Positions 14,449 to 15,199 are shown, numbered from the stretch's first letter. The stretch is DNA of 27,873 nt from a virus (IMGVR_UViG_2778261450_000008:1-27873), one strand, 5' to 3'. Notes: a model not told the origin generated them from the sequence alone. A program made the numbers and translations.

Positions 14449-14949
14449 TTATTCGCTCCCGTTATCGCAAGGTTCCTTCCGGTGGAAGTAATTCCAACCG
14501 TTCCACTTCGCCAACTGATTACCGCTACCAACAGGCATACGGTTTGGATAACCGGACTTACATTTAGCGGCTTTTGCTCTGTCCATTGCAGACAGTTTGA
14601 CGAGTCGCTCTTTCCCGTATCTGGCAGTGGTTATAAGTTTTGCTGACGCTTCCAGCGCATAATCCGGAGCAATGCGGCAGGCAAGGTTGAAAATGACGGC
14701 ATTGATAGCGTTATTTGATAAACCGTGCTCATCGCCCGGATCTGGAGCGACATCTGCATCAGCGAAAATGTAGCCAACGTTGATACCTGGTGACGCATCA
14801 GCGCCAAGCCATTCCGCCATCATCATTTCAAGGTCGTTGACACCATCTTCCATGGACTGAGGTTCGACATCGGTTAACGTGGCATTTGATGCCACACCGA
14901 GCTTACGTAATGCCGCAAGAACTAAATCACCCTTCGTTGTCAGGTTCAT
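14449..14949 (-). CDS. Tail accessory protein, P22 gp4 homologue (166 aa from the ATG at 14949)
   Basis: [33 protein letters not shown]... aligns with the P22 gp4 N-terminus ([33 protein letters not shown]); AAGG Shine-Dalgarno upstream. The SQSQ-repeat extension in the track ORF is an upstream out-of-frame read-in. Confidence 0.85.
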
Positions 14950-15199
14950 CTGCTGCCGCCTTAGGTTTTCGACTAGGCTTTTTACGCTGTTTTTCTTCTG
15001 GCTCTGGCTCTGGCTCTGGCTCTGGCTCTGGCTCTGGCTCTGGCTCTGGCTCTGCAACATCCTTCAAAAGGTCATCAGGATGTGAAAACCAGCCAGCATC
15101 CAGATATTCCTGAAGCTCTTCGGCTTTCACGATTTCAAAGTCGTATCCAACGCCTTTCCATTTCTTCATGTCGCCATGACGAAAGATCATGTGTGTCAT
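14927..15199 (-). CDS. Small hypothetical protein with a (Pro-Glu)9 repeat linker and a Lys/Pro-rich C-terminus, between coat and gp4
   Basis: 90-aa ORF from ATG 15199 ([16 protein letters not shown]...[32 protein letters not shown]...), GGAGA Shine-Dalgarno 5 nt upstream, just after an intrinsic terminator; 3' end overlaps the gp4 start by 23 nt. I do not recall an equivalent gene in P22. Confidence 0.5.
14997..15054. repeat. Perfect hexanucleotide tandem repeat (GGCTCT)n, about 9.7 units
   Basis: Read directly: tctg followed by nine uninterrupted GCTCTG units. On the - strand it encodes (PE)n in the small ORF, (SQ)n in the gp4 frame upstream of its start, and Ala/Arg-type repeats in the third frame. 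Confidence 0.95.

Follow-up and report, generated by a model that had tools for sequence, protein, structure and literature searches.

Why does the virion-assembly operon of a P22-like prophage carry a perfect hexanucleotide repeat between the coat gene and the gene for gp4, and is the small open reading frame (ORF) that contains the repeat a gene in its own right? The repeat lies in a viral sequence of 27,873 nucleotides (IMGVR_UViG_2778261450_000008; hereafter, the window), which represents a P22-like prophage with its virion-assembly operon on the minus strand. The original prediction, made from the sequence alone, took the ORF for an inserted module with a TonB-like spacer and proposed that the repeat changes in copy number without breaking the frame. 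Based on the analysis reported here, the inserted-module and TonB readings are wrong, while the prediction of in-frame slippage is right and is now documented. We suggest that the ORF is very probably a gene of the P22 orf69 family, coding for a folded N-terminal domain (N-domain), a disordered Glu-Pro spacer that drifts freely in length, and a basic tail in which the gp4 ribosome-binding site is embedded.

The small ORF and its product

The ORF is framed by the following features:

15244-16542, minus strand: coat protein gene, homologue of P22 gp5 and 5' neighbour of the ORF (Pfam P22_CoatProtein, E 1e-166)
15210-15235, minus strand: terminator-like GC-rich hairpin GGGAGC-TTCG-GCTCCC (15235-15220), then ATTTTTATCT (terminator scan, RNA fold)
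15206-15209, minus strand: Shine-Dalgarno site GGAG of the small ORF, 6 nt 5' of its ATG (read from the sequence)
14927-15199, minus strand: small ORF of 90 aa, P22 orf69 homologue (phrog_1175), with ATG at 15199 and TGA at 14929-14927
15053-15199, minus strand: codons 1-49, predicted folded N-domain (AlphaFold2, conserved residues)
14999-15052, minus strand: (GAGCCA)9 microsatellite encoding (Glu-Pro)9, predicted to be disordered (Tandem Repeats Finder (TRF), 14997-15054 including in-phase partial units; shuffles)
14960-14986, minus strand: basic, AT-hook-like tail R-K-K-P-S-R-K-P-K (alignment)

Thus, the 90-aa ORF has its own Shine-Dalgarno site, follows the coat-gene hairpin and overlaps gp4, just as had been described. 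In E. coli genomes, PGAP annotates it as a hypothetical protein. The hairpin lies just 3' of the coat stop codon and has a 6-bp stem with five GC pairs, a TTCG loop and then a T-run (ATTTTTAT); it folds at -18.7 kcal/mol (z -2.9), is also annotated in P22 (as a stem_loop) and in Sf6 (as the terminator "t coat"), and is found in distant relatives. It is terminator-like, in that it combines the hairpin and T-run by which intrinsic terminators are recognised in sequence. The predicted minimum-energy fold lengthens the hairpin by pairing CCAG (15240-15237) with CUGG (15211-15208), a pairing that occludes the first two bases of the GGAG, so that translation of the small ORF might start less efficiently.

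The repeat is a single strong tandem array in TRF (14997-15054; period 6, 9.7 copies, 100% matches, score 116). An 18-nt (GAGCCA)3 probe has seven overlapping matches in the whole window, all at the array, compared with none in 100 shuffles. The units run from 15052 to 14999 on the minus strand, and their coding-strand translation is A-(EP)9-EE. The perfect, in-frame array of nine units is confirmed; in the predicted (Pro-Glu)9 linker, the number of units stands, but the reading order is (Glu-Pro)9.

An AlphaFold2 prediction built on a 20-sequence alignment assigns a pLDDT of ~89 to residues 1-40 and gives the N-domain a beta-hairpin (residues 2-25), a helix (26-34), a GW..HP turn and a short helix (42-48). 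In 20-21 sequences from members that are 28-76% identical, G36, W37 and P41 are invariant and H40 is present in at least 90%. Residues 50-90 have a pLDDT of 51-57 and no secondary structure, and the (Glu-Pro)n spacer and tail region is predicted to be disordered. Across the family, the pattern is an N-domain, an acidic and often EP-rich linker (EP-rich in many members at 28-58% identity), a basic K/R-x-G-R-K/P-P-K motif and a short acidic end. The basic tail reads KKPGRKPK in most alleles and KRRGRPPK in distant members. Because the motif is retained where the geometry of the gp4 overlap differs (KRRGRP in L088 and L090, KKPGRPK in L091), it is a feature at the protein level. Part of the conservation of the P-K-A tail is explained by the embedded AAGG site of gp4 rather than by protein function, and the conserved acidic end, ...DEPDNEG before the stop codon, by the conserved gp4 N-terminus, whose codons it reads out of frame.

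The junction with gp4

At its 3' end, the ORF shares sequence with gp4:

14959-14962, minus strand: AAGG, likely ribosome-binding site of gp4, in codons K80-A81 of the small ORF and 9 nt before the gp4 ATG
14927-14949, minus strand: overlap of the 3' end of the small ORF with the gp4 start, 23 nt (sequence; compare P22 and epsilon34)
14449-14949, minus strand: gp4, head-tail adaptor/packaged-DNA stabilisation protein of 166 aa starting MNLTTKGD (Pfam P22_Tail-4, 8e-59; phrog_637)

The overlap of 23 nt in the window compares with 17 nt in P22 and epsilon34. The AAGG is spaced 9 nt from the gp4 ATG in P22 and epsilon34 as well, and 6 nt in L088. At every junction that was read, those of the window and of nine relatives, stop and start overlap or lie no more than about 20 nt apart. 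From this conserved overlap or close abutment, and from the position of the gp4 site inside the ORF, we infer that translation of gp4 is plausibly coupled to that of the small ORF.

Taken further, such coupling could be the main point of the ORF: its strong GGAG would load ribosomes and pass them to the weaker embedded gp4 site, with the peptide being secondary. The junction fits this alternative both in the spacing of stop and start and in the AAGG located within the ORF, and so do the terminator-like hairpin that precedes the ORF and a passage in the epsilon34 genome paper (PMC2629481), citing Eppler et al. 1991, according to which the P22 gene is non-essential in the laboratory. However, the N-domain is conserved at the protein level and has a confident predicted fold, the basic motif 5' of the gp4 site survives differing overlap geometry, and an allele of the gene that carries an additional WDGH domain (see below) would be an odd elaboration for a mere leader. 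We therefore regard a mainly leader function as unlikely; it is, moreover, compatible with a protein-coding orf69-family gene and does not exclude it.

The repeat itself ends 47 nt 5' of the gp4 ATG, and this 47-nt interval, including the AAGG, is constant across alleles. Folding of the mRNA that contains the repeat gave less structure than was seen in 197 of 200 shuffles (z +1.87), and a scan of the interval at the Rfam gathering cut-offs gave no RNA family. A role of the repeat through RNA structure was rejected because the region is structure-poor compared with the shuffles. Similarly, with the interval fixed and the mRNA poorly folded, the suggestion that the repeat affects gp4 initiation finds no support.

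Copy-number variation of the array

To describe the variation of the array, we used 85 loci, comprising 80 IMG/VR contigs together with phages, E. coli genomes and the window. The arrays have 3-14, 24 and 33 units, a distribution whose range is unbiased but whose shape is biased because the search listed loci in order of their likeness to the 9-unit query. In 85 of 85 loci, the array length is divisible by 6, and all ORFs read intact. Alleles that were read directly have 1 unit (AEQEEKQ), 24 units and 33 units, so that the overall range is 1-33. Copy number thus varies among related prophages and does so without ever breaking the frame, in agreement with the original prediction.

Identical 324-nt flank haplotypes are found with differing counts (e.g. 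4/11/24, 9/10/13 and 5/8/13), which means that the array changes faster than point substitutions accumulate in the flanks. The locus is present in 217 of 5,426 complete E. coli genomes, where the 421-nt query spans 373 to 565 bp and 173 of the 217 contain the greater part of the query; in IMG/VR, ~240 loci have this allele. Isolates EC556/571/581 and the bovine/chicken strains E20, E50, E57 and E67 all have a 391-bp span; because close isolates share one count, the rate of change is not extreme. Arrays may be interrupted by GAGCAA (Gln), GAGACA (Thr) or GATCCA (Asp); long arrays are pure. The array is a strongly non-random, highly polymorphic coding microsatellite, and the locus is a variable-number tandem repeat (VNTR). 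A phase-variable contingency locus was considered and rejected on account of the 6-nt unit, the 85 arrays that are all multiples of 6, and the intact ORFs. The gene also changes length in frame in another way: in the E. coli allele P0015, the end of the N-domain carries a 13-residue tandem duplication.

The same CCA-GAG hexamer encodes the EP linker in four members that are 33-41% identical in protein to the window ORF:

L090, 4001-4210: divergent member with CCA-GAG array
L092, 1501-1731: divergent member with CCA-GAG array
L093, 1367-1600: divergent member with CCA-GAG array
L094, 684-911: divergent member with CCA-GAG array

Neither CCA nor GAG is generally the preferred codon in enterobacteria. 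The CCA-GAG array would be either old and self-homogenising, or moved between lineages by recombination, and its presence in lineages this divergent could mean that it is actively maintained and not merely tolerated.

It is mainly because divergent lineages share CCA-GAG that we do not dismiss an adaptive role of spacer length. The array would in that case act as a tuning knob, with diversifying or fluctuating selection acting on length, e.g. on the reach between the N-domain and the basic tail, or through escape from recognition of the protein by a host factor. The maintenance of the microsatellite across lineages that are 33-41% identical, the range of 1-33 units, the purity of long arrays and the presence of an array in the WDGH-domain allele are all in line with this idea. 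On the other hand, on/off switching of the gene is impossible with a 6-nt unit, the EC and E isolates listed above share one count, and a neutral, self-perpetuating and self-homogenising microsatellite explains the identical facts, accounting for the shared CCA-GAG equally well. Overall, we consider adaptive tuning quite unlikely and favor a spacer whose length drifts.

The coding frame and the start of gp4

Because all six reading frames are open through the array, the coding frame needed separate proof. Upstream of the array, in codons 1-49, 15 of the 24 polymorphic sites among 84 related loci are at codon position 3. Read in the Glu-Pro frame, the changes in this N-terminal part are 16 synonymous versus 10 nonsynonymous, while the other two frames give 2/24 and 4/22. 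At the 3' side, with gp4 taken as 166 aa, its Pfam match to P22_Tail-4 starts at residue 2, and gene 4 of P22 and the PGAP calls of gp4 in E. coli are both 501 nt, agreeing with a start at 14949. Together, the third-position bias, the conservation of the N-terminal part down to 28% identity, the 501-nt gp4 and the PGAP call argue strongly that the Glu-Pro frame is the real coding frame and that the small ORF is a real coding gene.

In the GenBank records of phages Dewey, Louie and IME10, gp4 is annotated with an N-terminal (Ser-Gln)n extension and the small ORF is omitted. The extension starts at an ATG equivalent to position 15060 (window 14449-15060, minus strand; L002 2741-3334). Judged by the comparisons above, this extension is a mis-annotation.

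These three records and the six frames open across the array are what would speak for the small ORF being no gene at all, with the repeat lying in the gp4 leader or with gp4 starting at the ATG at 15060 and carrying the (Ser-Gln)n extension. This possibility is very improbable: the codon-position bias upstream of the array favors the Glu-Pro frame, the P22_Tail-4 match and the 501-nt gene 4 calls fit the 166-aa form, the N-domain is kept down to 28% identity with G-W..P invariant, and a GAAGG abuts the ATG at 15060 directly, with zero spacer.

A conserved slot between coat and gene 4

The P22 record contains orf69 (NP_059631) at 6135-6344, between the gene 5 stem_loop and gene 4 and with a 17-nt overlap with gene 4; its protein has 69 aa (MKIAIYKPGGSIMVWGVMAQMKVIDSSELPEYVKDGWLDHPSKLLPVEADDVKPRKGRKPKAVSDADKD). 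The window ORF matches phrog_1175 with E 2.2e-32 (residues 1-88 on profile 1-72/72) and P22 orf69 matches the same profile with E 4.5e-31 (profile 1-72/72). The two proteins are 38% identical over the N-domain (BLASTP, E 7e-8). By these profile and pairwise matches, the window ORF represents the P22 orf69 family, a small late gene between coat and gene 4, in its E. coli-type allele. In a tblastn search of phage records, the 90-aa protein recovered only eight near-identical records and not P22 orf69, which was missed because of low-complexity masking and its short length; the link was established via the P22 annotation and PHROGs.

Since orf69 is annotated in P22 at the same site and shares the PHROG, the ORF is not a novel insertion, and the novelty with which it had been credited falls away with the P22 annotation. 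Comparison across P22-like relatives extends this: a homologous gene is present at the same position in P22, epsilon34 and phage L, and the gene order coat, small ORF, P22_Tail-4 is found in all six distant metagenomic members. That the ORF is a foreign module absent from P22, carrying a rigid EP/KP spacer of the TonB type, is almost certainly wrong, because, although P22 orf69 is without an EP repeat and the (EP)9 run weakly matches TonB models by composition, the exact site holds a homologous gene in all P22-like relatives examined, among them P22, epsilon34 and phage L, the TonB scores are far under cut-off (TonB_N, 13 bits versus 33; NCBIfam TonB, 17.6 versus 315), and the product is without membrane anchor, TonB C-terminal domain and (KP)n run.

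The occupants of the slot are alike at their ends and differ in the middle. P22 orf69 shares with the window ORF the position after the gene 5 stem-loop, the gene 4 overlap, the N-domain, a basic GRKPKA tail and the embedded AAGG. However, its linker is a 9-residue non-repetitive PVEADDVKP, compared with (EP)9EEKQ in the window, and the protein has 69 aa rather than 90 aa. Gene 6 of epsilon34 (phrog_3769), equivalent to Orf186 of phage L, shares the slot, the N-domain and a tail (KKPGPKPKA) overlapping the gp4 homologue; unlike the window ORF, it has a WDGH domain of ~100 aa (PF25311, E 2e-40) between N-domain and tail. A Pfam search of the window ORF gave no match to the WDGH domain, and no solved structural relative of the epsilon34 WDGH allele was found. 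WDGH-domain alleles of the small gene are present in L096 (298-912) and L085 (1501-2061). The E. coli WDGH-domain allele has (EP)4 and an identical tail. Of the 217 E. coli genomes in which the locus was found, ~40 seem to hold the WDGH form, and PGAP marks one copy as a pseudogene. Sf6 gene 6 (phrog_3251) is likewise a small ORF after "t coat" that overlaps the gp4 homologue, and it ends ...KRGRKAADNG...; it belongs to a separate PHROG and its N-terminal similarity is undetectable. As sequence comparison found no similarity there, Sf6 gene 6 was rejected as an N-terminal homologue.

The epsilon34 genome paper notes that gene 6 homologues differ markedly in length and describes their role as unknown (PMC2629481). 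Our literature search found no functional study of this small gene family; the epsilon34 genome paper was the only one to comment on it.

Leads on function

With the 2-unit allele as query, phmmer was run exhaustively against 1.84 billion representatives and gave only 31 matches. Three of these are GIY-YIG- or HNH-type endonuclease-like proteins (P0137, P0143 and P0150; E 1e-5 to 6e-4 library-wide), and in such proteins the core of the N-domain (strand, helix, GW; residues about 20-40, window 15080-15140, minus strand) is repeated 4-5 times. An hhalign comparison of the N-domain core with the endonuclease module gave a probability of 96.5% and E 8.5e-10 over 20 columns ("kiVd.eEl.eYL..GW"). 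No Pfam model covering the repeated endonuclease-like module was found; NUMOD3 also matches in P0137. The likeness to the endonuclease module, combined with the AT-hook-like tail, suggests DNA binding. The AT-hook core R-G-R-P is absent in the window, where the tail is K-K-P-S-R-K-P-K, and most alleles have P-G-R-K-P. Pfam AT_hook has no match in the window, and the best member, P0134 (KRRGRPPK), scores 14 versus a cut-off of 17.4. A profile search with the N-domain alignment returned no solved structure with meaningful resemblance, and a BFVD structure search returned uncharacterised small phage proteins only. With a match of 20 columns, a failed AT-hook core and no similar solved structure, the DNA-binding lead is a weak one. 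Searching Pfam and NCBIfam with the ORF gave low-complexity matches only, to models such as PARP, TonB and DNA polymerase tau, none of which came near its cut-off.

Glu-Pro runs adopt an extended polyproline-II-like form. We speculate, tentatively, that the product could be a dispensable accessory factor for head completion that acts as a DNA tether, in which the EP rod would hold apart an N-domain and an AT-hook-like tail that each contact DNA or a partner. Of the functions that the protein might have, we regard such tethering as the likeliest, although it is more probably wrong than right. A bolder version, in which (EP)n would be an old and actively maintained ruler of variable length in a near-universal partner of gp4, with an N-domain homologous to a DNA-binding module of homing endonucleases, an AT-hook-like tail, and a length that tunes DNA-related head completion or escape from a host factor, strikes us as distinctly improbable.

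The surrounding prophage

Positions 1-5291 of the window form the prophage-host junction:

1-933: host gene of the formate/nitrite transporter family
1009-1083: tRNA-Arg(CCT)
1209-2402: integrase
2556-5291: GtrA, family-2 glycosyltransferase (GtrB) and GtrII cluster

The GtrA/GtrB/GtrII cluster is likely an O-antigen modification cassette. Within the virion-assembly operon, the tail-needle gene (12182-13030, minus strand) differs from P22 gp26 in encoding a C-terminal knob of the Sf6 type (Pfam Phage_tail_NK, E 2e-108), and its ATG overlaps the stop codon of the gp10 homologue. At 22750-22812 (minus strand), a match to the int-alpA sRNA family of Rfam scores marginally above the gathering score (38.6 versus 35.8 bits).

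A model for the evolution of the spacer

In the model that we favor, the product of the orf69-family gene would be tripartite, with an N-domain of ~48 residues that is linked by an acidic, disordered run of (Glu-Pro)n to a basic tail of the pattern K/R-P-G/S-R-K-P-K, and the last codons of the ORF would hold the ribosome-binding site and the start codon of gp4. The pure (GAGCCA)n array would gain or lose whole 6-nt units through slipped-strand mispairing and, as a consequence, the small ORF, the basic tail and gp4 would stay in frame in every allele. Because the spacer would serve as a flexible linker, its length would be largely unconstrained and drift. Here, slippage is the putative mutational mechanism, and we infer the near-neutrality of spacer length from the breadth of the count distribution, in which loci are ranked by likeness to the 9-unit query.

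These observations have several consequences. The array offers a ready length marker by which P22-like prophages of E. coli, Salmonella and relatives can be distinguished even when they are otherwise nearly identical. Public phage records mis-annotate gp4 and drop the small gene in a region where the repeat leaves six frames open, and the locus draws attention to a gene that adjoins gp4 in every P22-like phage examined. A protein that tolerates 1-33 Glu-Pro units and an optional WDGH insert would provide sites for protein engineering or tagging. Finally, the leads from the endonuclease module and the basic tail make DNA binding a testable hypothesis.

Comparison with known systems

Three known systems resemble the locus in part. 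The TonB spacer, like the window ORF, has an alternating Glu-Pro run, and the proposed likeness to a TonB-type EP/KP spacer holds in composition but not in homology. The window ORF, unlike TonB, has no membrane anchor, hydrophobic segment, (KP)n run or C-terminal domain, and only 23 residues follow its repeat. Lambda gpFI is a small, dispensable, non-virion protein that is encoded between the genes for the major capsid protein and for head-tail joining, and its folded parts are joined by a long, flexible, acidic linker. Compared from general knowledge, gpFI is a positional and architectural analogue only of the small ORF product. The array itself is most similar to coding microsatellites and VNTR loci in bacteria and prophages, with which it shares a pure array of short units and counts that differ among otherwise identical haplotypes. 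However, in contrast to on/off phase-variation switches, its unit is a multiple of three, and a change in the array changes length only.
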